Positions 2,963 through 41,163 of a DNA stretch of 41,378 nt are shown here, piece after piece; positions within the stretch are counted from its first letter, which is position 1; each line of letters starts with the position of its first letter. The notes under the pieces were generated by a model. That model saw nothing but the letters and a program-made list of their open reading frames with translations. It was not told where the DNA came from and ran no database searches. This DNA comes from Candidatus Kaiserbacteria bacterium RIFOXYD1_FULL_47_14. GTDB taxonomy: Bacteria > Patescibacteriota > Minisyncoccia > Phycocordibacterales > Phycocordibacteraceae. Both the position numbers and the translations under genes were made by a program. The stretch is taken from NCBI GenBank assembly GCA_001781915.1, contig MFMU01000009.1, positions 7,449-48,826 on the forward strand. The letters run 5' to 3'.

Positions 2963-3151
2963 ATGGGGATGGCGTGAAGTGGTTAAAATGGGAATATACA
3001 GACGCAAACACACGCGGACTTGCTTCGCTTTGTGTTCTTTCAGTTCACAGTATGAATCTTCTCCTTCGGCGCCCTCCATTACTCACTCGTATCTATGTTT
3101 CTAATGTATCAGTCCCCGCCTTTTCGCGCAAGTACGGGTGGGGATAAAGAG

Positions 3152-3835
3152 CTATTTCTCTTTGCGCCAAGCATCGATATTCGCGTGGTGTCCGGTTTGG
3201 AGGACCTTCGGGACGCTGTAATTTTTACCTTTATACAAAATAGTTTCGGGGCGGGTGTAGACCGCTGATGAAGCGATTCGGCGTTCTTCGACTGACGCAT
3301 CTTTACCCAGAACGCCTGGGAGACGGCGGGTGACAGCGTCGACGATAGCGAGCGCGGGGATCTCTCCGCCGGTATAGACCGCCTCGCCCACAGCGAATTC
3401 TTTTATTGGTGCAAGCGTCTTCAGGATTTTCTTCGCGCGTTCGTCGATTCCTTCGTAACGGCCACAGACGAGAACAACATCGTCATATTTCGTGAGCGCG
3501 TCGGCATCTTTATTCGTAAATTGTTTGCCGCTCGGACTAAACCAAATGACCACTCGCCCATGTTTGGACTTCCGAAGTCCCAAAACTGACTTCTGAAGTC
3601 CTTTTCGCCCAAATGCTTTCTCGACTGCACGAACAACAGACAGTGCAGTCATCACCATCCCAGGCCCACCGCCGTATGGGCGTTCGTCTACCTTGCCCCA
3701 TTTATTATTGACAAAATCGCGCGGGTTCTGATAGTCAACTTTAATTTTTTTCTCTTTTCGAGCGCGTCCAACAATCGATGCATTCAAATAAGCATCGCAT
3801 GTTTCTTCAAACAATGTAATTAAGTGAAATTTCAT
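3152..3835 (-). CDS. trmD: tRNA (guanine37-N1)-methyltransferase TrmD
   Basis: 227-aa ORF with the TrmD motifs ERPYGGGPGMVM, VCGRYEGIDER, YTGGEIPALAIVDAVTRRLPGVLG and YTRP. It carries an in-frame palindromic insert (see the repeat at 3555-3601). Confidence 0.93.
   Translation of the reverse strand: MKFHLITLFEETCDAYLNASIVGRARKEKKIKVDYQNPRDFVNNKWGKVDERPYGGGPGMVMTALSVVRAVEKAFGRKGLQKSVLGLRKSKHGRVVIWFSPSGKQFTNKDADALTKYDDVVLVCGRYEGIDERAKKILKTLAPIKEFAVGEAVYTGGEIPALAIVDAVTRRLPGVLGKDASVEERRIASSAVYTRPETILYKGKNYSVPKVLQTGHHANIDAWRKEK
3555..3601. repeat. REP-B-like palindrome doublet inside trmD, in frame
   Basis: GGACTTCCGAAGTCC (3566-3580, 7-bp dyad) is followed 7 nt later by GACTTCTGAAGTC (3588-3600, 6-bp dyad). 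The 14-nt left flank CGCCCATGTTTGGA (3555-3568) is identical to 39463-39476 in the tkt gene. The element is translated on the minus strand as GLQKSVLGLRKSKHGR. Confidence 0.75.
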
Positions 3836-8943: not shown

Positions 8944-8961
8944 GCAAATACAAAAATTACT

Positions 8962-9000
8962 GGAGGTGAAACACCCAAGTTGCTTGGGTGTTTCACCTCC
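8962..9000. repeat. Palindrome C1 (perfect 18-bp stem, 3-nt loop)
   Basis: GGAGGTGAAACACCCAAG ttg CTTGGGTGTTTCACCTCC. It shares the GGT(G/T)AAAC..AAGTTGCT architecture with C2 (9930-9972) and the string GGTGAAAC(A/C)CCCAAGT with C3 (37867-37889). Confidence 0.85.
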
Positions 9001-9097
9001 AAGTTCTGGGTCTCTTGCTTTTGGCTTCGCAAGGAGCATACTTTATATGTGAGGTTTCGATCTCACTGTTGCTCTTTGGTTCAACCAATAACTCAGT

Positions 9098-9107: not shown

Positions 9108-9872
9108 ATGGCTTCGGTCAGAAATCGCAAGACGCGGGCTCGAGAGACGCTTGACTATGCTCTCGGAAAGGCAAAATATGTTTCTTTCGGTCAATTGTCT
9201 GTATCCGAAAGTAACGAGCTCTTGAGAACCACGCTGCAAGATGTCGATTTAAGGGAACTGCGCGGGTTCAAACTTCTCAAGGATCTTCTGGTTTTTCGAC
9301 CAGGAAGTACCGTTTACGGAGGAGAGACCTCGCACACTCTGGATCTTAAAACCCTCGAGCTAAGTGACACGGTCTCTTTCTTGACTCGTGGATTCGAAGA
9401 AACTCTTCCAGTAGATATGGCCACTCATGTTCTTCGTCTGTATCGCTGGATATGGAACTGGCAGATGACATTCAAACGAAACGAATCGGGAGAAGAAACG
9501 GATGATAAGAAAGTGGCATCATCCTGGGGCAGGTCCGCACACCATCATAAAGGAAGCGGTGAAGTCCTAGCCGTTCGACGGCCTCACAACCACACCAGGG
9601 CGGACGAGAATCTTATCGTAATCAACTTTTGGTATGAAAAGATCCCGTTTGAGGAAAGGCACATCATCACAAGAATCGAAGTGGACGACCTTCCTCTTCA
9701 AAACTTCCGCAAGCATTTCGGCGTGTTATATGCTCAAGCGGCCGTCGAACTCATCGGAGAGCTCAGAAGTGCCTACTCAAGCACTGCGAGCGAACTCAGG
9801 TCCCAGCTTAATTATATTGAACGCAGGACCGCAGAGTTAGAGCGACTTTCCGGGGCAATAACATATCGATAA
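9108..9872 (+). CDS. Hypothetical protein (254 aa, orphan; no motif recognised)
   Basis: An open frame with a strong SD and its own terminator. The track start at 8988 is a GTG inside palindrome C1 and is rejected. The gene lies on the opposite strand to both neighbours (smc, rnc). Confidence 0.6.
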   Translation: MASVRNRKTRARETLDYALGKAKYVSFGQLSVSESNELLRTTLQDVDLRELRGFKLLKDLLVFRPGSTVYGGETSHTLDLKTLELSDTVSFLTRGFEETLPVDMATHVLRLYRWIWNWQMTFKRNESGEETDDKKVASSWGRSAHHHKGSGEVLAVRRPHNHTRADENLIVINFWYEKIPFEERHIITRIEVDDLPLQNFRKHFGVLYAQAAVELIGELRSAYSSTASELRSQLNYIERRTAELERLSGAITYR

Positions 9873-9888
9873 GTAAGATCTTTGTAGC

Positions 9889-9917
9889 AAAAACCACCGG
9901 AGTTTCGGTGGTTTTTT
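9889..9917 (+). terminator. Rho-independent terminator (usable in both directions)
   Basis: The structure is AAAAA CCACCG gagttt CGGTGG TTTTTT: an A-tract, a 6-bp GC stem and a T-tract. It starts 17 nt after the stop of the 9108-9872 ORF. Confidence 0.75.
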
Positions 9918-9929
9918 GTTTTTATGCAC

Positions 9930-9972
9930 TGAGAGGTTAAACCCTTAAGTTGCTGAGGGGTTTAACCTCTCA
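9930..9972. repeat. Palindrome C2 (15-bp perfect outer stem)
   Basis: TGAGAGGTTAAACCC ttaagttgctgag GGGTTTAACCTCTCA. The centre AAGTTGCT is shared with C1. It lies 4 nt downstream of the rnc stop codon. Confidence 0.85.
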
Positions 9973-9975
9973 AAA

Positions 9976-10677
9976 TTACCACTGCATCTTTTTAAGTCCT
10001 GCTTCTGCAGCTGCTTGTTCCGCCTCTTGCTTGCTCTGCCCTTCTCCGCGAGCAATTTCTTCAGTATCAATAAAAACGCCGACCGTAAAATGCCTTGCAT
10101 GGTCAGGCCCTTCTTCAGAAAGCGTTTCGTAGCGCGGCGTCGCACTGCGTTTTTCTTGCGAGGATTCTTGAAAGCGACTCTTCGCATCCTGATATGAACG
10201 CTTCGCGATTACCTCGTCGATCTTCCCGTAGAGATTCTTCGCGATAAATGCTTCAGCACCCGCATAGCCCGCATCAAGATAAATGGCGCCGATAATCGCT
10301 TCAAATGCATCGGCGAGTATCACATCGCGCGCACGGCCAGTGTCCTTCGCTTCGCCTTTTGAAAGCAAGAGGTAGTCATTAATGCCGAGCGCCTGTGCAC
10401 TTTCGGCGAGCGACATCGTGTTCACGAGCGCAGCACGATAGCTGGTCAAATCGCCTTCCGGCTTCGCAGGAAATTTTTTAAAAAGGAAATCGGTAGCGGC
10501 GAGTTCGAGTACGGCGTCGCCGAGAAATTCGAGTCGTTCATTATGACTGCCGGTATAATCGCGATGTTCGTTGAGGTACGAGCGATGCGTCAACGCCTCG
10601 ATGAGGAGGTTGAAATTGTTGAATAAAACGCCGAGTTGTTTTGAAAAAAGTAAGAAATCAGGCATGAGTACTCGCAT
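9976..10677 (-). CDS. rnc: Ribonuclease III
   Basis: The RNase III signature HRSYLNE...NERLEFLGDAVLEL is present, with a C-terminal dsRBD (GPDHARHFTVGVFI...GEGQSKQEAEQAAA). Confidence 0.93.
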   Translation of the reverse strand: MRVLMPDFLLFSKQLGVLFNNFNLLIEALTHRSYLNEHRDYTGSHNERLEFLGDAVLELAATDFLFKKFPAKPEGDLTSYRAALVNTMSLAESAQALGINDYLLLSKGEAKDTGRARDVILADAFEAIIGAIYLDAGYAGAEAFIAKNLYGKIDEVIAKRSYQDAKSRFQESSQEKRSATPRYETLSEEGPDHARHFTVGVFIDTEEIARGEGQSKQEAEQAAAEAGLKKMQW

Positions 10678-11557
10678 TATCTAAGAGTTTTTGCACCGCT
10701 GCGGTGACGATAGGGAGCATATCATCATAGAAATTGAGGTCAATGATGTCCTTCAAGCGGAACCATTTCGCATCATCGAGCCCGCCGCTTTTCTTCAAAA
10801 CGATTGGTTCGAATTCGCAGGAGGCAAGATAAAAGCAAACATGCTTGCGCACCTTCCCTTTTTCCGGATGCGAAGCGACATATTCGTTCTCGCCAATTTG
10901 ACCTTCTACTTTTACATTGAGATTCAACTCTTCTTTAATAACGCGCGCCACGCCCGCTGCGGGCGTGGCGTCTTGTTCAACATGACCTTTGGAGAGTGTC
11001 CATCGGCCGAATACATCATGCACGAGCGCGAGATAATATTGCCCATCATGTTTTGTGTAGACAATCGCGCCGCCCATTCGTTCTATCGGTAATTCTTCGC
11101 GCTTCATCTTCTTTTCTCCTTGTTCATTCTTCCCCGGTTCGCCGAGCTCTTTATAGACCGCTCCGAGAACGCCATTCACAAAACGCCCACTCGAATCGCC
11201 GCCAAATGTTTTCGCGAGTTCGATGGCTTCATTAATAGCAACTTTCGCCGGCACTTGTGCGCGATCAGCAAAAAGGAGTTCGTAGAGTCCAAGACGCAGA
11301 ATGTTTCGATCAATTGGCGCAATGCGCTCGAGCGACCACTCTGGCGCGGCCTTTTCGATAATGAGATCCACATCATTTTTCTTCGCGAGAACGCCGAGTA
11401 GGAGTCGTTCCATAAACGGATGATCAACATCATCACCTCCGAATTCTGCAGTGTTGCGCGCAAGAATTGTGAGGGTGTCCTTTTCGGATGCACCAGTAGT
11501 GTCCCATTCAAAGAGCGTCTGGAGGACAACTGAGCGCGCTAGGTGTCTATTCGCCAT
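10658..11557 (-). CDS. nusB: NusB antitermination factor fused to a C-terminal Nudix-fold domain
   Basis: The N-terminal ~145 aa are NusB-like (RSVVLQTLFEWD..., ILRLGLYELLF...VPAKVAINEAIELAKTFGG...FVNGVLG). The C-terminal ~150 aa have a Nudix fold with a degenerate box GHVEQDATPAAGVARVIKEELNL. The 3' end overlaps the rnc start by 20 nt. Confidence 0.8.
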   Translation of the reverse strand: MANRHLARSVVLQTLFEWDTTGASEKDTLTILARNTAEFGGDDVDHPFMERLLLGVLAKKNDVDLIIEKAAPEWSLERIAPIDRNILRLGLYELLFADRAQVPAKVAINEAIELAKTFGGDSSGRFVNGVLGAVYKELGEPGKNEQGEKKMKREELPIERMGGAIVYTKHDGQYYLALVHDVFGRWTLSKGHVEQDATPAAGVARVIKEELNLNVKVEGQIGENEYVASHPEKGKVRKHVCFYLASCEFEPIVLKKSGGLDDAKWFRLKDIIDLNFYDDMLPIVTAAVQKLLDNASTHA

Positions 11558-13365: not shown

Positions 13366-16300
13366 ATGGCGAGCCGATTCATCCACCTCCACACACACAG
13401 CCACTACTCGTTTCTTCAGGCATTACCGAAGATAGACGAGCTGGTCGAGAAGGCGAAAAAAGAAGGAATGGAAGCAGTTGGACTTACCGATGGAGGCAAT
13501 ATGCACGGCGCCATCGAGTTTTATAAAGCCGCAACGAAAGCGGGAATAAAGCCGATCCTCGGCGTCGATGCCTATCTCGCTCCGCGTTCTCGAAGAGAGC
13601 CCGAACAAAACGCCGATATCAAACGCTCGCGCATCGTTCTCTTAGCCGAAAATAATACGGGCTACAAGAATCTCCTCGCGATCGTGACGAAGTCATGGAC
13701 CGAAGGTTTCTCTGAAAAACCGCGTGTCGACAAAGAACTTCTGCGCGAATACCATACCGGCGTCATCGCACTCATTCCTTCTTTCGCTGGTGACATTGCT
13801 CAATGCCTGCGCGCAGGCGACACAAACGGTGCTGCAGCTGCGCTCGCAGAATTTAAAGATATTTTCGGCGCCGATAATGTCTTTCTCGAGATTACGCACC
13901 ATCCGAAAGTCGAAGGGCACGAGGCACTGATGCAGAAAATAATCGCCCTTGCCCGTCAAAATAGTACTCCTCTTGTCGCACAGAACGATGTCTATTATCT
14001 CGACCCGAGCGACCGAGAAGCAACCGAGATTATGCGCCGTATCCAGCACGGCGGGCGCGGAAGGAATGAAGATGAGGACTTCTCTTTCATCAGCGAGAAG
14101 ACCGCTGAAAAATTATTCAAAGATACACCTGAAGCCATCGATAATTCCAAACTGATTGCCGACCGATGCAATCTCTCTTTTGATCTTGGGAAATGGACAT
14201 TCCCTGCCGTTCCTGTCTCGCCGGGCTTCAAAAATCATGACGAAGAACTGCGCGCAAAATCTTACGCTGGTATCGCCACGCGCCATCTCGAAGAAACAAA
14301 AGAAGTCACTGACCGTATTGATTACGAACTGAACATTATCAACAACAAGGGCTTCGCCGTATATTACCTCATCGTCGCCGACCTTCTCGCCTTTGCGCGG
14401 CGCGCTGGCATCTTCACCACCACTCGCGGCTCAGCAGCCGGCTCCTTAGTTGCGTATCTCGTCGGTATTACCAATGTGAATCCACTTTTTTATAAACTTC
14501 CATTCGAACGATTTTTGAATCCTGAACGACCGAAAGCGCCAGATATCGATATGGATATGGCTGATAATCGCCGCGATGAAATGATCGCCTACACGAAGCA
14601 AAAATATGGCGAAGACCATGTCGCACAAATCGGCACCTTCGGCACTATGATGGCACGCGCCGCAGTGCGCGATGTGGCGCGCGCACTTGGCCACTCCTAC
14701 ACCACCGGCGACCGCATCGCAAAACTTATTCCTATCGGCTCACAGGGATTTCCAATGACTATCGATCGCGCACTCGAGCTCGAGCCGGATCTGAAATCTC
14801 TCTATGACGAAGATGATGAATCGCGCGAAGTCATCGACCTCGCGAAACGCATCGAGGGCTGTGTACGACATGTCGGTGTACACGCGGCAGGCGTCGTGGT
14901 TTCGCCGACGCCACTTATCGAATGGACGCCGATTCAGCCCGACCCGAAGGGCACCGGCAAACTTATTACACAATACGACATGTATTCAATCACCGACGAA
15001 TATGGAGGCGTCGGGCTCTTGAAATTCGACTTTCTCGGTATAAAAAATCTCGCTATACTCGCTGATGCGGTTTCGTGCGTGAAGCAAACGCAGCATGTGG
15101 TCGTGGATATCGAGAATGTCCCTATAAATGATACGAAAACATTCGAAATGCTCGCACGCGGAGAGACCGAAGGAGTTTTCCAATTAAACGGTTCAGGCAT
15201 GACGCGCTGGCTAAAGGAACTGCGCCCGACAACTATTCACGATATCAATGCGATGGTAGCTCTCTATCGTCCTGGACCGATGGAAACTATTCCGCAATAC
15301 ATTGAAAGAAAACATAATCCGAAACTTATTCGTTTCGTTGATTCGCGCATGAAGAGCTATCTCGACTTTTCGTACGGCCTCTTGGTTTACCAGGATGATG
15401 TGCTTCTCACTGCAATAAAACTCGGCGGGTATTCATGGCTTGAAGCAGATGCGCTCCGCAAAGCGATGGGCAAAAAAATTCCCGCAGTTATGCAAGCAGA
15501 AAAACAAAAGCTGACGAGAGGATTTATCGGATATGGAAAGCTTTCAGAAGACACTGCTCAAAAACTTTGGCAACTCATCGAACCATTCGCAGCATACGGT
15601 TTTAATAAAGCCCACGCTGCCAGTTACGGGAAAGTCGCCTACCAGACCGCGTATATGAAGGCGAATTATCCGGTCGAGTATCTCGCTGCCCTTCTTACTG
15701 CCGACTCGGGCGATACTGAGCAAATCGCTATTTTTGTCGCCGAAGCGAAGCGTATGAATGTCCTCGTATTGCCGCCGGATGTGAACGAGAGCGGTAGTAA
15801 TTTCACTGTAGTGCATATAGAAACGGGAGGAGAGGGAATTCGATTTGGACTTTCATCTATCAAAAACTTTGGCGATGGAATCTCTGAAGCCATTATTTCT
15901 GAGCGCAAGAATCATGGTGTTTTCAAAACACTTTCTGATTTCCTCTCGCGCATCGGAACAAAGAATCTTAACCGCCGATCGCTCGAATCGCTTATTAAAT
16001 GCGGCGCACTCGATTCTCTCACGCCTCCAGAAAACGGTCGCGGCACCCTGCTCGAAAATATTGAGACGATGCTCTCTTTCCATCGTGAATCGACCGCGAC
16101 AGCGCCTCAGGATTCTCTTTTCGGCGCTCTTATCGCACCGCCGCCACTCGTACTTCCTCCTGGCAAGCACAGCTCGCTTCTCGACAAACTCTCATGGGAA
16201 AAAGAACTGCTCGGCATTTATGTAAGCGGTCATCCGCTCGATGCGCACGCAGCGATAACCGCGAAAGCGAAACTTTCTATCGCAAAAATCAAAGAAAATC

Positions 16301-20930: not shown

Positions 20931-20966
20931 GAACCCCGGATTGGCCAATCGGCTAATCCGGGGTTC
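20931..20966. terminator. 12-bp-stem hairpin between the convergent small ORF and pheT (bidirectional terminator candidate)
   Basis: GAACCCCGGATT ggccaatcggct AATCCGGGGTTC, followed by ATTATTTTTAT on the plus strand. Confidence 0.6.
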
Positions 20967-20981
20967 ATTATTTTTATAGCG

Positions 20982-22760
20982 TTAGCGAACCTCGTATTTC
21001 TTTTCGGTAAGTGCTTCGGTAATTTTCTGCATAATAACATTCACTTCATCATCAGTGAGCGTCCGATCGAATGATTGGAAGACGAGGCGGAATGCGAGCG
21101 AGGTCTTCCCTTCTTTCTCAAATCGATCAAACTGGTCGAGACGAATCAAAAATTCTCCTGCGTTTTCACGAATGATGGATCTCGTAAGTCCATCATCGGC
21201 GTCGCTCGGCAGCCAGAGCGCGATGTCTCGCGTAATAAACGGATAGAGAGAAAATGGTTTATACGCGCCTAGATGATACTGTTTTGGTTCATAATTTTCA
21301 TCATCTTGTATCGCCGGCAATCCGGGCACTGGCTCTGATGTTTCAACTGCAAGTTTCTCGCCGTCTTTGGTGAAAATAGTGCCGATTTCAAAAAGCTTCG
21401 GCTTTTCATTTGGTGCGAGCACCAACGGCGCAAAATATTTTGCGCGTTCGAGTGCTTCTTTCATATTCTCGCTCAAAGTAGCGCGCAATGCTGGTTTCGT
21501 CTTATCGAGCGGATTCGCCAATATAATGTCGCCCTTCTTCGCGAATGATTGTGTCGAAATCTCCGTAAAGCCGTGGTCAATCAGAAAGTCCTTCACACGC
21601 TCGATGCCACGATAGCGCGCTTGATTCGGCTTCTCAGCAGCAGGAGGAAGTTCGACTATTGATACTCGATCATATCCAAGAATGCGACCAACTTCTTCGA
21701 TGAGATCTTCAGGAATCTGAATATCGTTTCGCTCGAAAGACGGTGTAACCGTAAAGGTTTCGCCATCTATTTTGGTATCTAAATCAAGTCGTCTGAACGC
21801 ATCAGCAACTTCTTCTTTTGAAAAATTCACTCCGAGAACGCCATTAATCTTCGCGAGCGACACAGAGACCTCCTGAATCTTTTCTGAACGAGTCGGGTAT
21901 ACATCTATAACACCTATGACTTCCCCGCCGGCAATTTCTTGAATGAGTGCAAGCACATCGCGCATACCATATGCAGCGAGTTCCGGCGACGGACGATTCT
22001 GAAAACGGAGTGATGCCTCGGTCGGAAGCTTCAATGCTTGTGCCGCACGGCGAATGGTCGTGCAGTCGAAGTTAGCTGATTCAACAACAATGTCAGTTGT
22101 TGCAGAAGTAATTTCTGCATGCATGCCACCCTTAACGCCCGCGATACCAATCGGAATATCTGCATTCTCGTCAGTGATGAGAAGTGTGCCCTCGGGCAAA
22201 ATAAATTCTTCTCCTGAAAGCGTCGTGATTTTTTCTTCCTTCTTCGCGCCGCGCACGCCGATAGTAAACGCCTCATCTTTTTCTACCAATTTCGTCGCAT
22301 CAAAAGCGTGCATCGGCTGACCAATGTTGAGCATCACGAAATTCGTCGCATCGACGATGTTGTTTATGGAGCGCTGACCGACTGCTTCAATCGCTTCTCT
22401 AAGCCACATCGGCGACGGACCAATCTTCACCCCCTTCACGAGCGCGCCAACATACCGCAAGCATTTCTTTCCATCTTCAATCTCAACTCTTAAGTGGGGA
22501 CTTACGAAGTCCCCATTTTGGATGGGCGTACGAAGCGGATCGTTCTTGAATGGAAGGTCGAGTATCGCCGCAAGATCTTTCGCGATGCCCCGATGACAGA
22601 GACAGTCCGCCGCGCGATTCGGCAGAACTTTCACATCCATTCTATCTCCATCCTGCTCCTCTATCTCGAAAGAATGAAAAGTGAAAGCGTCAGTAACGAC
22701 ATCTGCCGAAGGCAGCGGCTGGTCAAAATATTTCTGTAGCCAATTTCGTGAGACAATCAT
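20982..22760 (-). CDS. pheT: Phenylalanyl-tRNA synthetase beta subunit (short form, 592 aa)
   Basis: MIVSRNWLQKYF is a typical PheT N-terminus. The B3/4 region (CLRYVGALVKGVKIGPSPMWL), the B5 region and a C-terminal FDX-ACB-like domain are present. The 5' end overlaps the pheS stop by 4 nt. Confidence 0.9.
   Translation of the reverse strand: MIVSRNWLQKYFDQPLPSADVVTDAFTFHSFEIEEQDGDRMDVKVLPNRAADCLCHRGIAKDLAAILDLPFKNDPLRTPIQNGDFVSPHLRVEIEDGKKCLRYVGALVKGVKIGPSPMWLREAIEAVGQRSINNIVDATNFVMLNIGQPMHAFDATKLVEKDEAFTIGVRGAKKEEKITTLSGEEFILPEGTLLITDENADIPIGIAGVKGGMHAEITSATTDIVVESANFDCTTIRRAAQALKLPTEASLRFQNRPSPELAAYGMRDVLALIQEIAGGEVIGVIDVYPTRSEKIQEVSVSLAKINGVLGVNFSKEEVADAFRRLDLDTKIDGETFTVTPSFERNDIQIPEDLIEEVGRILGYDRVSIVELPPAAEKPNQARYRGIERVKDFLIDHGFTEISTQSFAKKGDIILANPLDKTKPALRATLSENMKEALERAKYFAPLVLAPNEKPKLFEIGTIFTKDGEKLAVETSEPVPGLPAIQDDENYEPKQYHLGAYKPFSLYPFITRDIALWLPSDADDGLTRSIIRENAGEFLIRLDQFDRFEKEGKTSLAFRLVFQSFDRTLTDDEVNVIMQKITEALTEKKYEVR
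22492..22518. repeat. REP-B-like palindrome in frame inside pheT
   Basis: AAGTGGGGACTT acg AAGTCCCCATTT forms a 12-bp stem including one G.T pair. It is translated on the minus strand as QNGDFVSPHL. The core GGGGACTTCG.AAGTCCCC resembles GGGACTTCCGA.ATCCC of REP-B. Confidence 0.6.
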
Positions 22761-26520: not shown

Positions 26521-26538
26521 CCTTGAGAAACTAACCTG

Positions 26539-26559
26539 TGTGGCGGTTCAACCGCCACA
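26539..26559. repeat. REP-A copy 1 (just 3' of the RAYT-A stop codon)
   Basis: TGTGGCGGTT c AACCGCCACA is a 10-bp dyad. It lies between the Fic stop (26520) and the RAYT-A stop (26563). Confidence 0.85.
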
Positions 26560-26562
26560 AAA

Positions 26563-27234
26563 CTATTCGAGAAGAAGTCCTCTGAAATCTTTTAATTCCT
26601 CCTTTCTTTGCAAAATCGATTCCAGAGATGAAAGCGCGAACTCTTTATACTCACCAACATTTTTAAATTGCCCTAAAATAATTTCTTTTTCGCAAATGCC
26701 CTTAATCCTCGTATCTATATATTCTCCCCAACTTGACTTGCTCTCTACTAACTTGACAGTTGTGGCGATTGAACCGCCAAGTTGATGCACATGATCATTC
26801 AAATTCACATAGGAACTGGCGTGGAGAAGATATTCGTTTGAATCAATATGTATCGCTTTGAATCTTCCCTGAAATAACGCCCCGTTTCTTTCATATTTAT
26901 TATTAAAGTACCAAGTATATCCGCCAATTCTTTTCATAAACTCACTGATACCTCCATCTACGAGCTGTTCTAAAATGAGATGGTAATGATTCGGATTCAA
27001 ACAATACGCAAGAATATTAACAAGCTTCTCCGACAGTGTGGCGGTTGAACCGCCACACTGTCTACGCGAATTCTCATAGAGACTTCCTATCGGATCAATA
27101 ACATTGAATTCAATCATACTTTTAAAGAACCTTTCTATGTCGTATCGGTTCGTAAAGATAATCCTCTTATCAACCCCTCTGTTGAATACATGATAAAATT
27201 CTTCATTCGCGAAAGGTGCTTTTCTTGTACCCAT
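26563..27234 (-). CDS. IS200/IS605-family Y1 (HUH) transposase-like protein, RAYT-like (paralogue A)
   Basis: Present are FYHVFNRG, the HUH motif NHYHLIL, GALFQGRF and SSYVNLN (Tyr helix). Two internal segments (QCGGSTATLSE and LGGSIATTVKL) are encoded by REP-A palindromes. Confidence 0.85.
   Translation of the reverse strand: MGTRKAPFANEEFYHVFNRGVDKRIIFTNRYDIERFFKSMIEFNVIDPIGSLYENSRRQCGGSTATLSEKLVNILAYCLNPNHYHLILEQLVDGGISEFMKRIGGYTWYFNNKYERNGALFQGRFKAIHIDSNEYLLHASSYVNLNDHVHQLGGSIATTVKLVESKSSWGEYIDTRIKGICEKEIILGQFKNVGEYKEFALSSLESILQRKEELKDFRGLLLE
26763..26779. repeat. REP-A copy 2 (degenerate, inside the RAYT-A ORF)
   Basis: TGGCGATT g AACCGCCA has one mismatch in the 8-bp dyad. It is translated as GGSIAT. 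Confidence 0.65.
27032..27062. repeat. REP-A copy 3 (perfect 15-bp dyad inside the RAYT-A ORF)
   Basis: GACAGTGTGGCGGTT g AACCGCCACACTGTC. It is translated as RQCGGSTATLS, about 15 codons upstream of the HUH motif. Confidence 0.9.
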
Positions 27235-27260
27235 TGTTTATATCCTAACATTCGTTCCTT

Positions 27261-27277
27261 TGGCGGTTGAACCGCCA
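27261..27277. repeat. REP-A copy 4 (5' of RAYT-A, 15 nt from the tRNA-Thr 3' end)
   Basis: TGGCGGTT g AACCGCCA is a perfect 8-bp dyad. Confidence 0.85.
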
Positions 27278-27291
27278 CAAGTGAATAAGTG

Positions 27292-27364
27292 AGCCGAGAG
27301 TCGGATTCGGACCGACGACCTGCTCATTACAAGTGAGCTGCTCTACCAGCTGAGCTATCTCGGC
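27292..27364 (-). tRNA. tRNA-Thr (anticodon UGU), no encoded CCA
   Basis: The minus strand reads GCCGAGA TA GCTC AGCTGGTA GAGC A GCTCA CTTGTAA TGAGC AGGTC GTCGG TCCGAAT CCGAC TCTCGGC T. This is a perfect 7/4/5/5 cloverleaf with anticodon loop CT-TGT-AA. The T-loop reads TCCGAAT (C at position 55) instead of TTCGAAT. Confidence 0.9.
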
Positions 27365-29136: not shown

Positions 29137-29901
29137 TTACGCGGCAGATGCAAGGCGGAGCGCCTCGATAATATCATCGATATCGCCTGCGAGAATTTTC
29201 GGCAGATTATGCCAGGACTTCTGGAGGCGATGGTCGGTCACGCGGTCTTGAAGATAATTATAGGTGCGGATTTTTTCCGAGCGGTCGCCCGTGCCGATCT
29301 GCGCTTTGCGCTCTGCCGCGTGCTCCTTCGCTTCTTGTTCGTCGTGCAGTTGTTCGAGCTTCGCGGAGAGAATCTGCATCGCCTTCTCGCGGTTCGCGAG
29401 CTGGCTGCGCTCTGATGAGGACTTCACATCGATACCGGTCGGAATATGCACGAGCCGTACTGCGGTCTCAACCTTGTTCACATTCTGCCCGCCCGCTCCT
29501 CCGCTTCTCGAGAATTCCATCTGAATATCGGCAGGACGAATATCGACAGTCGACTTCGCGCGGATAGGCAACACAGCAATTGAGGCGGTTGAAGTATGAA
29601 TACGACCCGACTTCTCGGTTAACGGCACTCTCTGGACCCGATGCACGCCGGTCTCGTAGCGCAAAGCATCATACGCATCAGAACCCACAATTTCGAGTGT
29701 GAGCTCGTCGATAATACGCGTCTTCCATCCGCGCCGTTCAGCGTACTTCTGATACATTTCTTTCAAATCACGCGCGAAGATAGTTGCCTCATTTCCGCCT
29801 GCGCCCGCGCGCAATTCCATCACAACTGAAATCGGGCTCGTGTCTGAGCTCCCTTCACTGCTCTTTTGCACTCCTCCTTTTAAATATTCCGAATAGTCCA
29901 T
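29137..29901 (-). CDS. prfA: Peptide chain release factor 1 lacking N-terminal domain 1 (254 aa)
   Basis: Present are [27 protein letters not shown], the RF1-type tripeptide region [28 protein letters not shown] (PxT) and the GGQ motif [24 protein letters not shown]. The protein begins about 20 aa before domain 2. Confidence 0.88.
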
Positions 29902-29909
29902 ATGCCCAT

Positions 29910-29915
29910 ATTATG
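29910..29915 (-). promoter_or_regulatory. -10-like box CATAAT, 8 nt before the prfA ATG
   Basis: The minus strand reads TCATAAT atgggcat ATG(29901). Confidence 0.35.
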
Positions 29916-29957
29916 ACATCCGATGTCCGAATGCACGGGGACATCCGATGTCCGAAT
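29915..29957. repeat. Tandem pair of an 18-nt unit GACATCCGATGTCCGAAT, each containing a GGAC/GTCC-type mini-hairpin
   Basis: Unit 1 is 29915-29932 and unit 2 is 29940-29957 (identical 18-mers, 25-nt period). The dyads are GACAT ccg ATGTC and GGACAT ccg ATGTCC. The pair lies in the rpmE-prfA spacer. Confidence 0.8.
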
Positions 29958-29961
29958 CCAA

Positions 29962-35045: not shown

Positions 35046-35073
35046 CCGCATCTTTCATATTTCCGCAACTTTC

Positions 35074-35104
35074 CTTATGTGGGATTTCCGAAACCCTACA
35101 TAGG
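35074..35104. repeat. REP-B copy 1 (upstream of RAYT-B)
   Basis: The sequence is CTTATGTGGGATTTC c GAAACCCTACATAGG. The dyad is centred on 35089 with G.T pairs and one A/C mismatch. On the minus strand it reads ATGTAGGGTTTCGGAAATCCCACAT, with a GTAG head. Confidence 0.85.
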
Positions 35105-35107
35105 TAG

Positions 35108-35113
35108 TATACT
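35108..35113 (+). promoter_or_regulatory. -10 box TATACT, 6 nt before the RAYT-B ATG (leaderless-type)
   Basis: The plus strand reads GGTAGTATACT tgtcga ATG(35120). Confidence 0.45.
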
Positions 35114-35119
35114 TGTCGA

Positions 35120-35803
35120 ATGGATTTGTACCATGTACTTAATCGTGGAATTGATGGACGCAAACTATTTCTTGACTCGCAGGACTACGCGCGATTTGTC
35201 CATAATCTGTACGAATTCAACGACACTGCCCCTGCATTAGAATTTACTCGCCGAGATACGCATAATTCGAATGTGGGATTTCCGAAACCCTACATTCGGA
35301 AAAGGAAACGGTTAGTGGAAATTCATGGATGGCATCTTGCAAAGAATCATTACCACTTACTTATTTCAGAGCTGATTGAAGGCGGGTTGGCGACTTTCAT
35401 GAAAAAGCTAAATATTGGTTTTGCAAACTATTACAATGAACGATATAGGCGACAAGGACACCTTTTCCAAGGGAAAACAAAGAAAATCCTCCTTGCGCGG
35501 CATGAACATTTTCTCTACATCCTCCATTACCTTCATTTGAATTCGCTAGATTATTTCCCTGGCGCGAAGAAATGGCGCGAACGAGACAAGGGTATTATTT
35601 CGAACATTCCAAAAATACTCGAATACCTCCGAGAATATCGCTGGAGCAGCTATCTTGATTATTGTGGTACACCGAACTTTCCATCAATCCTCACCACATC
35701 GCTTTTTGGTGATGCTCTTGGCACGAACTATGTCTCTTCTCTTAAAGAATATCTGATGGACCGAACCTCTGAGGATATAGATCAGAAATTACTAGAGTAT
35801 TAG
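35120..35803 (+). CDS. IS200/IS605-family Y1 (HUH) transposase-like protein, RAYT-like (paralogue B)
   Basis: Present are LYHVLNRG, the HUH motif NHYHLLI, GHLFQGK and LHYLHLN (Tyr helix). The protein is collinear with paralogue A. The internal segment SNVGFPKPYIR is encoded by REP-B copy 2. Confidence 0.85.
   Translation: MDLYHVLNRGIDGRKLFLDSQDYARFVHNLYEFNDTAPALEFTRRDTHNSNVGFPKPYIRKRKRLVEIHGWHLAKNHYHLLISELIEGGLATFMKKLNIGFANYYNERYRRQGHLFQGKTKKILLARHEHFLYILHYLHLNSLDYFPGAKKWRERDKGIISNIPKILEYLREYRWSSYLDYCGTPNFPSILTTSLFGDALGTNYVSSLKEYLMDRTSEDIDQKLLEY
35266..35300. repeat. REP-B copy 2 (inside the RAYT-B ORF, in frame)
   Basis: The sequence is TTCGAATGTGGGATTTC c GAAACCCTACATTCGGA. The 17-position dyad is centred on 35283 with wobble pairs and one mismatch. 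The 25-nt core is identical to copy 1. Confidence 0.85.
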
Positions 35804-35810
35804 CCATATA

Positions 35811-35841
35811 ATTATGTGGGACTTCCGAAATCCTACATGAT
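35811..35841. repeat. REP-B copy 3 (between the RAYT-B stop and the fba stop)
   Basis: The sequence is ATTATGTGGGACTTC c GAAATCCTACATGAT. It has the same polarity as copies 1 and 2. Confidence 0.85.
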
Positions 35842-37864: not shown

Positions 37865-37866
37865 TT

Positions 37867-37889
37867 ACTTGGGGGTGAAACCCCCAAGT
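37867..37889. repeat. Palindrome C3 / bidirectional terminator-like hairpin
   Basis: ACTTGGGGG tgaaa CCCCCAAGT has a 9-bp stem. It contains GGTGAAACCCCCAAGT, which differs at one position from GGTGAAACACCCAAGT in C1. It lies between two convergent stop codons. Confidence 0.7.
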
Positions 37890-37893
37890 GAAA

Positions 37894-38067: not shown

Positions 38068-38073
38068 ATTATA
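38068..38073 (-). promoter_or_regulatory. -10 box TATAAT, 6 nt before the ATG at 38061
   Basis: The minus strand reads TATAAT agatat ATG. Confidence 0.4.
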
Positions 38074-39067
38074 TATGAATGAATGCACGAATAGCATCTG
38101 CTATGTGGAGAACATCGAGTCCATAGTGAGCGAGCAATTCGTCTGGCTGGCCTGACTGACCAAATTGATCCTGTATACCCAGTCGATGTATCGGCACGGG
38201 ATACTGTTCAGAAAGAAATTCAGTAATCGCACTTCCGAAACCGCCCGCGACTTGATGTTCTTCAATGGTGACGACGCGGCCCGCACGCTTCGCCACATCG
38301 AGCACCGCTTCAGTATCGAGCGGCTTTACGGTCGGTACATGGAGAACGACACACTCGATGCCTTCTTCGGCGAGCGTGCGGGCCGCACAAAGTGCCGTAT
38401 ATCCTAACGAACCAGTCGAAAGAATCGCAATTTTGAGCGTTCCTCCGCCAACTGGCGAATCCCAGAGAAGAAGCGCTTTCCCTATTTCAAATGGTGTTTC
38501 TGAAGTTGTAAAAGTCGGTGTTACTGCACGACCGAAACGAATGTATATCGGTCCATCGGTTGTCGCTGCAGCAACGATTGCCTTCCGCGCTTCTTCTGCA
38601 TCGCACGGCGCAATCACCGTCATATTCGGAAGCATGCGCATCATACCAATATCCTCAAGCATCTGGTGGGTCGCTCCATCAGGACCGACTGAAACGCCCG
38701 CATGCATTCCGCATATCTTTACTGACATCTGATTAAGCGCGATAGTGGTGCGAATGTGTTCATAATTTCTGCCCGGACTGAACACGGCGTAGGACGCAAT
38801 AAAAGGAATTTTCCCTGCAGCCGCCATGCCAGCGGCAACTCCTGCCATATTCTGCTCGGCAACGCCCATTTCAACAAAACGATCAGGGAACTCTTTCTGA
38901 AACTGTTCAGCGCGCGTGCTCTCAGAAACATCAGCGCAGAGCACGACGACGCGCGAGTCGGCTTTTCCTGCTTCCACTGCGCCACTTCCAAAACCATCGC
39001 GCATCGGAGCTTTTTCGATATCGTCCGCGAACACTTTTGCTGACATTCTTGCATCAGGATTAATCAT
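38069..39067 (-). CDS. tkt: Transketolase, C-terminal subunit (pyrimidine-binding and C-terminal domains)
   Basis: Present are MRDGFGSGAVEAGKAD..VVVLCADVSESTR, FVEMGVAEQNMAGVAAGMA and GATHQMLEDIGMMRMLPNM. The start at 39067 overlaps the N-subunit stop by 8 nt (ATGATTAA). An alternative ATG lies at 39046. Confidence 0.88.
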   Translation of the reverse strand: MINPDARMSAKVFADDIEKAPMRDGFGSGAVEAGKADSRVVVLCADVSESTRAEQFQKEFPDRFVEMGVAEQNMAGVAAGMAAAGKIPFIASYAVFSPGRNYEHIRTTIALNQMSVKICGMHAGVSVGPDGATHQMLEDIGMMRMLPNMTVIAPCDAEEARKAIVAAATTDGPIYIRFGRAVTPTFTTSETPFEIGKALLLWDSPVGGGTLKIAILSTGSLGYTALCAARTLAEEGIECVVLHVPTVKPLDTEAVLDVAKRAGRVVTIEEHQVAGGFGSAITEFLSEQYPVPIHRLGIQDQFGQSGQPDELLAHYGLDVLHIADAIRAFIHI

Positions 39068-39944
39068 GGCGGATTTCTTTAAGGAATCGTTCTCCTTCTT
39101 CATCTGTAGGCACTTTCCCGTGCCAATGATAATCATTTTCAATCTCCGGCACGCCCTTGCCGGGAATCGTGTGTGCGATAATGAGCGTCGGTTTTTCATC
39201 TATCGTTTTTGCTTCATCAATTGCTTGTATAAACTCTGTGATGTTGTGCCCATCGACTTCAAGCACATGCCAATTGAATGCGCGATATTTATCAGCGAGC
39301 GGTTCGAGCGGCATTATATCCTCGGTCATACCACCTATCTGTATATTGTTGCGATCTATAATCGCAGTCAAATTTGAAAGTTTATTTTTCCCGATGAACA
39401 TCGCCGCCTCCCAGGTGCTTCCTTCTTCCTGCTCGCCATCGCTCATCACACAGTAAATGCGCCGCCCATGTTTGGATATCGGAAGTCCCACATCTGATGT
39501 GGGACTTCCGATATCCCACATTTTATCGTCCATACGAAAGGCGTACGCTATACCAGCCGCCTGCGAGAGACCTTCGCCAAGCGGACCTGATGTGGTTTCA
39601 ACACCCGGCAATACTAAACGATCAGGATGCCCCTGGAGTCGGCTGCCAAACTTCCGTAGTGAGAGACATTCTTCAATAGGGAAATAGCCAGCGTGTGCCA
39701 TCGTCGCATAGAGTACCGGACAAATATGCCCGTTTGAGAGAACGAGCCGATCGCGCTCTTCCCACTCGGGCCACTTCGGATCGTGATTGAGAATATGAAA
39801 ATAAAATGCTGCAAAGATATCCGCCATACCGAGAGAACCAGCCGTGTGTCCGCTTCCTGCGGCAACAAGCATCTGAACAATTGTCTCGCGAATTGACTTC
39901 GCTCGTTTTTCCAGTGTGAGTAATTGCTCTTCAGTGAGTGCCAT
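39060..39944 (-). CDS. tkt: Transketolase, N-terminal (thiamine-diphosphate-binding) subunit
   Basis: Present are GSGHTAGSLGMADIFAAFYF, RDRLVLSNGH, LQGHP, VMSDGEQEEGSTWEAAMF and IIDRNNIQIGG. The gene contains an in-frame REP-B doublet at 39463-39521. Confidence 0.9.
   Translation of the reverse strand: MALTEEQLLTLEKRAKSIRETIVQMLVAAGSGHTAGSLGMADIFAAFYFHILNHDPKWPEWEERDRLVLSNGHICPVLYATMAHAGYFPIEECLSLRKFGSRLQGHPDRLVLPGVETTSGPLGEGLSQAAGIAYAFRMDDKMWDIGSPTSDVGLPISKHGRRIYCVMSDGEQEEGSTWEAAMFIGKNKLSNLTAIIDRNNIQIGGMTEDIMPLEPLADKYRAFNWHVLEVDGHNITEFIQAIDEAKTIDEKPTLIIAHTIPGKGVPEIENDYHWHGKVPTDEEGERFLKEIRHD
39463..39521. repeat. REP-B doublet (REPIN-like) in frame inside the transketolase N-subunit gene
   Basis: A perfect 20-bp inverted repeat pairs GGATATCGGAAGTCCCACAT (39474-39493) with ATGTGGGACTTCCGATATCC (39497-39516). 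The overlapping unit ATGTGGGACTTCCGATATCCCACAT spans 39497-39521. The left flank CGCCCATGTTTGGA is identical to that of the trmD element. The doublet is translated as MWDIGSPTSDVGLPISKHGR. Confidence 0.9.
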
Positions 39945-40725: not shown

Positions 40726-41163
40726 CTAGAACTTTGCAAGCCGTCGCGCGTGGCGTGGAGAATCAGAAAATGGTGTTTCGAGAAATTGCTTCACAGCTTC
40801 CTTCGCTTCTTCTGGAGTGATACATTGGGCGCCGAGTGAAAGCATGTTTGCATTATTATGTTCGCGAGAGAGTTTAATAATTTCTTGCGGACCGCCATAA
40901 AAAACGGCGGCGCGTACGCCGCGTACGCGATTCGCACACATCGCTTCTCCCTCGCCTGATTTTCCGATAACAATACCGCGAGCAGCCGCATCTGATGCGG
41001 CTGCTCGCGCGCAAGGCGTTACAAAATCCGGATAATCATCTTCAGGATTGAACACATATGCTCCCATATCTTCTACCTCATATCCAAGCATGCGAATCTG
41101 TTCAATGAGTACGCTCTTAAGCGCGAATCCTGCATGATCGGAAGCAATAAATACTTTAGACAT
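40726..41163 (-). CDS. rpiB: Ribose-5-phosphate isomerase B
   Basis: Present are MSKVFIASDHAGFALK, GIVIGKSGEGEAMCANRVRGVRAA and EHNNANMLSLG. The start overlaps the gap stop by 8 nt. Confidence 0.9.
   Translation of the reverse strand: MSKVFIASDHAGFALKSVLIEQIRMLGYEVEDMGAYVFNPEDDYPDFVTPCARAAASDAAARGIVIGKSGEGEAMCANRVRGVRAAVFYGGPQEIIKLSREHNNANMLSLGAQCITPEEAKEAVKQFLETPFSDSPRHARRLAKF

Follow-up and report, generated by a model that had tools for sequence, protein, structure and literature searches.

An in-frame palindrome in trmD

The subject of this analysis is a short palindromic insert in the trmD gene of Candidatus Kaiserbacteria bacterium RIFOXYD1_FULL_47_14, studied together with a similar insert in a transketolase gene (tkt) and a putative transposase gene on the same 41,378-nt stretch of DNA (contig MFMU01000009.1, positions 7,449 to 48,826; hereafter the window). 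The trmD gene (3152..3835, minus strand) encodes a tRNA m1G37 methyltransferase of 227 aa, which matched Pfam PF01746 tRNA_m1G_MT (E 9e-36) and TrmD structures in the PDB (down to E 4e-41). Against the NCBIfam TrmD models it gave 190-203 bits with cutoffs of 195 and 220, the scores being just below. The insert, at 3555..3605 on the minus strand, is read here as a degenerate REPIN, a doublet of two units of a repetitive extragenic palindromic (REP) family designated REP1. It lies in frame and encodes RKGLQKSVLGLRKSKHGR (peptide stretch GLQKSVLGLRK) in the context ..AVEKAFG-RKGLQKSVLGLRKSKHGR-VVIWFSPSGK...

On the coding strand the insert reads AAAAGGACTTCAGAAGTC-AG-TTTTGGGACTTCGGAAGTCCAAACAT-GGGCG. 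It holds two small palindromes, GGACTTCCGAAGTCC at 3566-3580 and, 7 nt further on, GACTTCTGAAGTC at 3588-3600, followed by C at 3601. A preliminary description, made from the letters of the DNA, had listed both palindromes, the in-frame translation as a duplicated GL(Q/R)KS unit between AVEKAFG and VVIWFSPSGK, and a 14-nt identity with the tkt insert, and each of these was found as described. The 14-mer, CGCCCATGTTTGGA, has two exact copies in the window, at 3555-3568 and at 39463-39476, and no third. It had been called a flank, and this has to be corrected: on the coding strand it is TCCAAACAT|GGGCG, so that most of it belongs to the palindromic unit, as its 3' end, and the rest is a recurrent 5-nt junction. 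In other copies the unit ends in ..TCCTACAT or ..CCCACAT.

The preliminary description had also stated that the TrmD linker of E. coli is only a few residues long. The loop was 12 aa longer than in the solved Haemophilus influenzae TrmD (4mcb) and than in orthologues with an empty site, and the E. coli segment is empty too.

The related insert in the transketolase gene

The N-terminal half of a split transketolase is encoded at 39060..39944 on the minus strand (Pfam Transketolase_N, E 4e-60; source-contig gene calls). The split gene as a whole spans 38069-39944, and its C-terminal half, at 38069-39103, overlaps the N-terminal half by ~44 nt according to the gene calls of the source contig (ENA ERZ28563774 scaffold_167). 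The N-terminal half, whose context reads ..DDKMWDIGSPTSDVGLPISKHGRRIYC.., carries at 39468..39521 (minus strand) an intact 54-nt REPIN composed of two inverted REP1 units separated by CAG and encoding MWDIGSPTSDVGLPISKH. The insert stands in the protein as ..DDK MWDIGSPTSDVGLPISKHG RRIYC.., with the peptide stretch DIGSPTSDVGLPISK, and the junction GGGCG follows it on the 3' side (39463-39467, reading CGCCC on the plus strand). It adds exactly 18 aa (54 nt) to the protein; homologues with an empty site are 275-285 aa long and read FRMD(D/G/N)KKQRVYC.

The inserts of trmD and tkt end in the same C-terminal peptide, SKHGR, as had been noted before. The preliminary description had proposed a nucleotide alignment of 3550-3605 with 39458-39525; the best local alignment of these segments held 30 identities in 35 ungapped columns and scored 25, versus 7.9±1.5 (maximum 16) for 4957 random pairs of window segments, with a z of 12.3 versus shuffled sequences. 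The likeness of the two inserts is thus far beyond chance. As single-stranded DNA the tkt insert forms a hairpin with a 23-bp stem (-24.7 kcal/mol, z -10.1), and the trmD insert still folds by pairing of its two units (-10.8 kcal/mol, z -4.9). Compared with the tkt doublet, the trmD copy has lost the central 6 nt, and its inner GTNG tags are lost or degraded, which bears out the earlier remark that it is partly decayed. Because of these losses the trmD copy is probably an immobile relic.

The RAYT-like gene and its REP1 copies

The REP1 unit is a 25-nt near-palindrome with GT(A/G)G tags, ATGTGGGAYTTCCGAARYCCYACAT, which a repeat search placed at 35077, 35271, 35814 and 39497 (family D4), with related units at 3555, 22487, 29903 and 39463 (family D2). 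There are 10 units at 7 sites in the 41 kb, and the 10-nt core matched 12 times versus 2.6 expected. As in known REPs, a GTAG-type tetranucleotide stands at the foot of the hairpin (ATGTGGGA...CCTACAT, with GTGG on one strand and GTAG on the other); in the related loci L017, L029 and L030 the palindrome has GTAG on both strands. The tkt and trmD copies form the inverted doublets that characterise REPINs. Four of the seven sites are intragenic (trmD, pheT, tkt and the gene RAYT1 described below), so the family is not extragenic as REPs are.

Three REP1 copies surround or occupy an open reading frame (ORF) at 35120..35803 on the plus strand, which encodes a protein of 227 aa and is designated RAYT1, for REP-associated tyrosine transposase (RAYT). 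The first copy (35077..35101, plus strand, family D4) stands 19 nt 5' of the RAYT1 start, within the 61 nt that separate RAYT1 from the divergent L25 gene, and is 100% identical to the second, at 35271..35295 (plus strand), which the repeat search located in frame inside RAYT1 (NVGFPKPYI), just N-terminal of the HUH motif. The third (35814..35838, plus strand) begins 11 nt 3' of the stop codon. The family thus flanks and sits inside RAYT1, which supplies a plausible mobilising enzyme.

The predicted fold and the HUH and tyrosine motifs identify the product as a RAYT-like HUH/Y1 transposase, with H77 and H79 in the HUH motif and Y137 as the putative catalytic tyrosine; all three residues are invariant. 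In the AlphaFold2 model the core had a confidence (pLDDT) of 72-94 and the REP-encoded segment was disordered (pLDDT <50). The top 25 PDB matches from Foldseek were all TnpA proteins of IS608, ISDra2 or IS200, or the E. coli TnpA-REP bound to its REP hairpin (4er8), with probability 1.0. The RAYT1 profile aligned in register with 4er8, the HUH motif NHYHLL opposite EHMHCI and the tyrosine motif Y-L-H-L-N opposite YIYINP (Tyr115). Searches of the PDB by sequence gave no match with a narrow RAYT1 profile (A2) and weak matches only (E 0.03-0.5) with a broader one (A1).

A second enzyme, RAYT2 (26563-27234, minus strand, 223 aa, 33% identical to RAYT1), scored 26.9 bits against Pfam Y1_Tnp, over the cutoff of 23. 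It has a palindrome of its own, REP2 (GTGTGGCGGTTSAACCGCCACA, family D7), with flanking copies at 26538 and 27258 and internal in-frame copies at 27036 and 26760, the whole unit covering 26538..27279; the internal REP2 hairpin had -17.9 kcal/mol and z -8.3. This unit adjoins a tRNA gene at 27292-27364. A GAPDH gene ~9 kb past the right end of the window (L103:9142) holds a perfect REP2 copy.

The same anatomy was found in all 11 of the 11 homologous Y1 genes located in the window and related loci, each with a cognate palindrome ~40 nt 5' of its start and just 3' of its stop; the Y1 genes of L085, L105 and L106 are flanked in this way. A Y1 gene bracketed by cognate REPs is the defining anatomy of RAYT/REP systems, the REPtron. 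About 110 of 120 RAYT1 homologues also carry an in-frame internal REP at the same position just ahead of the HUH motif, and six homologues of 218 aa are without it. The encoded peptides include NVGFPKPYI, NVGRTTSYI and NVGPRRSYI, and the window copies lie at 35271-35295 and 27036-27057. Although the REP varies between genomes, internal and flanking copies are identical in any one genome (window, L016, L045, L085, L105 and L106). No description of a REP inside a RAYT gene was found in full-text literature searches, whose coverage is incomplete.

In the window and in L106, RAYT1 occupies the space that separates FBA from L25 (regions compared: 35058-35120 and 9544-10357, respectively). At the syntenic position L105 has only a solo REP (15247-15275), and its RAYT1-like gene is located after RpiB. 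This hints that an entire REPtron may occasionally relocate, or be lost by excision between the direct REPs on either side of it.

Gene-resident copies and the REPs of the genome's own RAYT

At Tkt codon 141 the doublet repeats the sequence of the REPs that flank and occupy RAYT1 of the same genome. This holds in the window, L105 and L106, each with its own version: GTGGGAYTTCCGAARYCCYAC in the window, GTCGGGACGTAGTACGTCCCGAC in L105 and GTTGGACGTGGTACGTCCAAC in L106. In L105 the same REP was also present in RpiB and at one intergenic site.

A scan of metagenome contigs for the REP1 pattern gave 22 exact matches on 14 contigs, with up to 4 per contig, and ~16 of the 22 lay deep in ORFs of at least 270 aa. 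Their hosts were Tkt (at the same site), PheT (at the same site as window 22487) and a RAYT1 orthologue in L085 with two flanking copies and one internal, as well as probable UvrC and MurD genes, UvrC-like hosts being those of L083 and L088. Nearly all intragenic matches read xVG(L/F/H)(P/R)(K/M)SH(I/M), though all three frames are free of stops. Selection for a loop peptide that the protein tolerates, rich in Gly, Pro, Lys and Ser, accounts best for this bias; a mechanistic cause is conceivable. A looser census of GTNGG palindromes by regular expression (59/24/20 by phase) was contaminated by generic GC-rich palindromes, and the exact-pattern set together with the recognisable REP1-type rows was used in its place.

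Hairpins are abundant in these genomes more generally. In 1.33 Mb of related sequence there were 378 perfect hairpins with a stem of at least 9 bp, 212 of them within ORFs, and the first 20 loci held 110 hairpins versus 8 after shuffling (~14x). The most recurrent site was TrmD codon ~78, occupied in 25 species.

L023, L034 and L038 have the junction ..ACATGGGCG in their trmD loops as well, and in Tkt homologues it occurs in two reading frames, as KHGR and as YMGGR. Its recurrence in two frames makes the junction a feature of the DNA and not of the peptide, whether it belongs to the mobile unit or is a target that the unit prefers.

The remaining REP1 copies of the window lie in pheT and in an intergenic region. 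A single REP1-like unit, GTGGGGACTTACGAAGTCCCCAT, occupies 22487..22521 (minus strand) in the linker ahead of the B3/4 domain of PheT, where it is read in frame as NGDFVSPH; its hairpin had -9.0 kcal/mol and z -4.5. The only other pheT compared, that of L090, is also filled, with a REP at the same codon (3141-3165, MWDIGSPT), and this codon may be another hotspot. At 29903..29960 (plus strand, family D2) a variant doublet, GACATCCGATGTCCGAAT twice in direct orientation, stands directly 5' of the start of a release-factor gene (29137-29901, minus strand).

Other classes of element were considered for the palindromes as a whole. An intein or intron was ruled out, as no such domains were present and the units are only 36-54 nt long; a CRISPR array was ruled out by the irregular spacing, and ordinary terminators by the position of most copies within ORFs and without T-runs. 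A scan against Rfam matched no known RNA family. The terminal inverted repeats of an insertion sequence (IS) with target-site duplication, which mark miniature inverted-repeat transposable elements, were not found: the unit is a single hairpin, and no duplication was seen in the alignment of filled and empty sites.

Occupied and empty sites in relatives

The segment between PYGGGxGM and W(F/L)SP of TrmD was surveyed in 80 related species. In 27 of these it was 24-25 aa long and essentially hairpin-free (mean stem <=2 bp), as it is in E. coli and H. influenzae, where the segment is likewise empty. Segments of 28 aa (16 species) were mostly palindromic, and those of 30-45 aa contained perfect hairpins with stems of up to 23 bp. 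Hairpin strength thus followed loop length, with a mean stem of 7-21 bp in most longer forms, and these loops hold ~10 unrelated palindrome families. The empty relatives P0009, P0041 and P0048 are 80-90% identical to the window protein, with 215 aa and a 5-residue linker; the nearest, P0009, is 90% identical outside gaps and reads ..KALKNKKGKNIVIW.. at the site. The segment is therefore not universal, and the comparison with orthologues that the preliminary description had recommended came out in favour of an insertion. In a tree of TrmD with the loop masked, the basal branch was entirely empty, and a derived clade mixed empties with many different inserts.

One explanation for such a loop is that it is merely a fast-evolving, basic, low-complexity linker selected as protein, for instance for contact with tRNA, and that its palindromy is incidental. 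The loop is indeed rich in Lys, Arg, Gly and Ser in all relatives, empty forms included (KGKKGK). This reading is effectively refuted by the DNA identity to the tkt and RAYT-flanking repeats, which is far beyond chance, by the occurrence of the junction in two reading frames and by the dependence of hairpin strength on loop length. An artefact of assembly or sequencing at a hairpin-forming sequence is equally improbable. Palindromes can cause chimeric reads, and nothing specific points to this here; the identical TrmD protein was present on 12 contigs, three independent assemblies contain the region RpiB-tkt-RAYT1 and agree in their gene calls there, and homologous inserts were found in hundreds of independent metagenome-assembled genomes and metagenomes.

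Different palindrome families use the same codons, and at the Tkt site the resident copy matches the current REP. Both could reflect repeated insertion at permissive or preferred sites, replacement of one REP by another through insertion into it, or gene conversion; the stacked palindromes of different families in single TrmD loops of L001 and L023 favour repeated hits. Exact searches with the trmD palindrome of each species through the rest of its locus (±10 kb) gave a second copy in L005 and L025 alone; at this density of copies 20 kb is too small a sample, and the result neither supports nor refutes genome-wide families.

At the Tkt site, the filled forms are doublets in which the centre, PTSDVG (encoded by CCCACATCTGATGTGGG), is conserved and the arms differ between species by paired, compensatory changes. 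Such covariation is what would be expected if the palindromes shared the proposed origin and were now kept for a host function, as mRNA hairpins acting in translation pausing or mRNA decay or as DNA structures, and not through continuing mobility. Perfect stems of up to 23-26 bp persist in coding sequence, and RNase III is encoded in the window. We nevertheless regard retention for host function as unlikely, since many close relatives are without an insert at either site, the same family occurs in unrelated genes and in intergenic DNA, and the trmD copy is visibly decaying; moreover, the sequences match the RAYT-flanking REPs of each genome and not a gene-specific consensus.

Interpretation of the trmD insert

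The segment at 3555-3605 is likely a REP/REPIN copy of a RAYT-associated family: an old and partly decayed REPIN of the REP family of RAYT1, whose gene lies 32 kb from it in the window. That RAYT1 itself mobilises the family of the trmD and tkt inserts is somewhat less certain and, by analogy with related enzymes, we consider it probable. Like the TnpA of IS200/IS605 and the E. coli TnpA-REP, RAYT1 would recognise the REP hairpin on single-stranded DNA, and it would cut and rejoin DNA by means of an HUH-coordinated metal and the catalytic tyrosine, so that REPs or REPINs would be duplicated or shifted to other chromosomal positions. Because ~90% of the genome is coding, most landings would fall inside genes. 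Those that survive would have a length divisible by 3, a stop-free and tolerated frame (mostly G-x-x-x-S, giving peptides rich in Gly, Pro, Lys and Ser) and a position in a permissive surface loop, examples being the loop of TrmD between the AVEKA helix and the VVIWFSP strand and that of Tkt at FRMD|KKQRVYC. Both inserts of the window are presumably translated and tolerated.

The preliminary description had seen in the trmD insert a second independent in-frame landing of one element family and had taken mobility as the explanation. Much of this stands: a single mobile palindromic family lies in frame in two essential genes, and the mobility reading gains support from the members of the family that flank and sit inside the RAYT-like gene at 35120-35803. 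The word independent does not stand in the same way, as an independent landing is inseparable from re-insertion at a hotspot or gene conversion, and the sites are old.

Several observations count against the origin and mobility proposed here. The trmD and tkt inserts are common to relatives at ~83-86% protein identity and give no sign of recent movement in this genome; because they are shared at this distance, both are old and vertically inherited. The alignment of filled and empty trmD DNA showed no target-site duplication and no clean junction, and the codons on both sides differ too. Among the 7 loci that contain both a RAYT and trmD, the trmD palindrome resembled the REP of the nearby RAYT only in the window and L023; the others presumably belong to RAYTs elsewhere in those genomes, and several resemble REP2 (ACTTGGCGG..CCGCCAAGT). 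The three REPs at RAYT1 are all in direct orientation, unlike the inverted orientation usual for classical RAYTs. The AlphaFold2 model of TrmD, with a pLDDT of 56, is too poor to prove that the loop is exposed and lends this at most weak support. Finally, RAYT1 scored 21.0 bits against Pfam Y1_Tnp, just under the cutoff of 23, and RAYT1 and RAYT2 gave 19.5 and 24 bits against NCBIfam REP_Tyr_transpos (NF047646, cutoff 80), which leaves both outside the curated family. By these scores the two enzymes form a distant Y1 clade, and are not classical RAYTs or equivalogs of the E. coli and Pseudomonas RAYTs.

The lack of a target duplication or of defined ends between filled and empty sites would also suit a spread that does not involve the RAYT, through template switching, gene conversion or replication slippage, the Y1 gene being a frequent target or a passenger. 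The palindromes of RpiB and GAPDH overlay native segments without a change of length, which is more like conversion or templated mutation, and the CGTC-type REPs of other bacteria have no associated transposase (PMC3733652). Cognate palindromes, however, stand at fixed distances around every Y1 gene examined, and paralogous Y1 genes in one genome each own a palindrome family, as enzyme-substrate co-evolution predicts and a passive target does not. We judge RAYT-independent spread slightly less probable still than retention for host function.

An extension of the RAYT-driven reading is possible, and we offer it tentatively, holding it somewhat less probable than its negation. In Kaiserbacteria-like members of the Candidate Phyla Radiation (CPR), the REP-RAYT system would be mainly intragenic, and certain loops (TrmD ~78, Tkt ~141, PheT ~80, RAYT ~50) would serve as long-lived docking sites at which the resident palindrome is repeatedly replaced or converted to track the REP of the current RAYT, with the RAYT-internal copy acting as a master, autoregulatory or self-targeting site. 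If this were so, enzyme-substrate co-evolution would be written into housekeeping proteins, and minimal genomes would have a steady source of lineage-specific peptide loops.

Comparison with known systems

REP/REPIN-RAYT systems are well described (PMC3116915, PMC3337134, PMC5581495, PMC3479197), and the REPtrons of Proteobacteria (Nunvar 2010; Bertels & Rainey 2011, PMC3116915; Ton-Hoang 2012; structure 4er8, PMC3479197) share with the system reported here a short imperfect palindrome tagged with GT(A/G)G, inverted doublets that give long hairpins, a Y1/HUH gene flanked by cognate REPs, several REPtrons per genome each with its own REP family, and vertical inheritance at a syntenic site (here FBA|L25, in the window and L106). 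They differ in that REPs are extragenic by definition, whereas the copies here are mostly intragenic and in frame. The enzymes here, of 220-230 aa, have an extra C-terminal region and fall far below the NCBIfam RAYT cutoff; the REPs of RAYT1 are direct, the RAYT gene itself contains an in-frame cognate REP whose position is conserved, and the host belongs to the CPR. No paper linking REPs or RAYTs with CPR/Patescibacteria was found in the full-text searches, whose incomplete coverage makes this absence of evidence only.

Intragenic REPs of the GTAG and CGTC types are on record from several phyla, often in uvr or replication genes; Opitutus terrae and Thauera are among the hosts (Di Nocera et al. 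2013, PMC3733652). As here, GTAG-type monomers and dimers within ORFs add ~7-30 residues, argued to form loops or linkers, and a UvrC-like host is found in both cases. In that study the intragenic copies were a minority of a mainly intergenic population, and occupation of the same codon by different families across species, a frame bias or a RAYT-internal REP was not described (PMC3733652).

The elements also resemble Rickettsia palindromic elements (RPE) in being inserted in frame into functional protein-coding genes. RPE-1 is about 100-150 bp long, and we know of no transposase associated with RPE. The elements here, at 21-54 nt, are much shorter; the sequences are probably unrelated, and the hosts of RPE are Alphaproteobacteria. 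As far as RPE are portrayed in the citing paper, they too are selfish palindromes in frame in essential genes, tolerated at the surface and vertically inherited (Ogata et al. 2000, cited in PMC3733652).

With IS200/IS605 elements and the hairpin-bearing non-autonomous PATEs, the system has in common the fold and catalytic motifs, presumed recognition of a subterminal hairpin and the lack of target duplications. Unlike in IS200/IS605, the Y1 gene does not appear to be multicopy: the two paralogues of the window are only 33% identical, and each seems to keep a stable syntenic position. The dispersed units of 21-54 nt are far shorter than IS ends with cargo, and no tnpB is present.

The kind of system is therefore already known from the intragenic REPs of other phyla, and what differs is its largely intragenic and frame-biased distribution, the hotspot codons, the divergent longer enzyme, the CPR host and the RAYT-internal REP. 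The trmD insert taken alone is a relic of an expected kind; the system behind it is unusual. REP/REPIN-RAYT systems have been seen as extragenic and mostly proteobacterial, and here one occurs in an ultra-small, gene-dense CPR genome that offers almost only genes to enter. The occupied positions show, as a map made by nature, which loops of essential enzymes (TrmD, transketolase, PheT, GAPDH and RpiB) tolerate insertions, and they explain much of the length variation and many of the 'hypervariable linkers' of CPR orthologues, which can lead alignment, phylogeny and annotation astray. Within each genome the REPs that flank the RAYT gene, lie inside it and reside in other genes match one another, and this three-way agreement gives a handle on the co-evolution of REPs with their transposase and on the replacement or conversion of copies. 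The in-frame REP inside RAYT, if functional, would give HUH transposases a regulatory or self-targeting feature of a new sort.

Other palindromes and repeats in the window

The RpiB gene (40726-41163, minus strand) contains at 40977-41009 a perfect palindrome with a 16-bp stem, CGCGAGCAGCCGCATCTGATGCGGCTGCTCGCG, which encodes ARAAASDAAAR. By eye, no change of length was seen relative to E. coli RpiB, and the RpiB of L105 has a different palindrome, with a 15-bp stem, in the same place. The RpiB palindrome looks more like the replacement or 'palindromisation' of a native segment than a simple insertion.

Directly 3' of the pfkB stop, at 37865-37891, lies ACTTGGGGGTGAAACCCCCAAGT; the palindromes in the trmD loops of L051 and L062 are members of its family. 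A hairpin with a 19-bp stem occupies 8961-9001, between SMC and the next ORF, and one with a 16-bp stem is located just downstream of pheT, at 20931-20966. The NusB-NUDIX fusion gene carries a palindrome with a 12-bp stem at 10946-10970, which is conserved in L076. Repeats of another kind are found at 31042-32097 in a 900-aa ORF with PKD domains (30232-32934), where direct repeats of 72-122 nt, with 74-89% identity, are spaced ~300 and ~900 nt apart. These are consistent with tandemly duplicated PKD/Ig-like domains of a surface protein.

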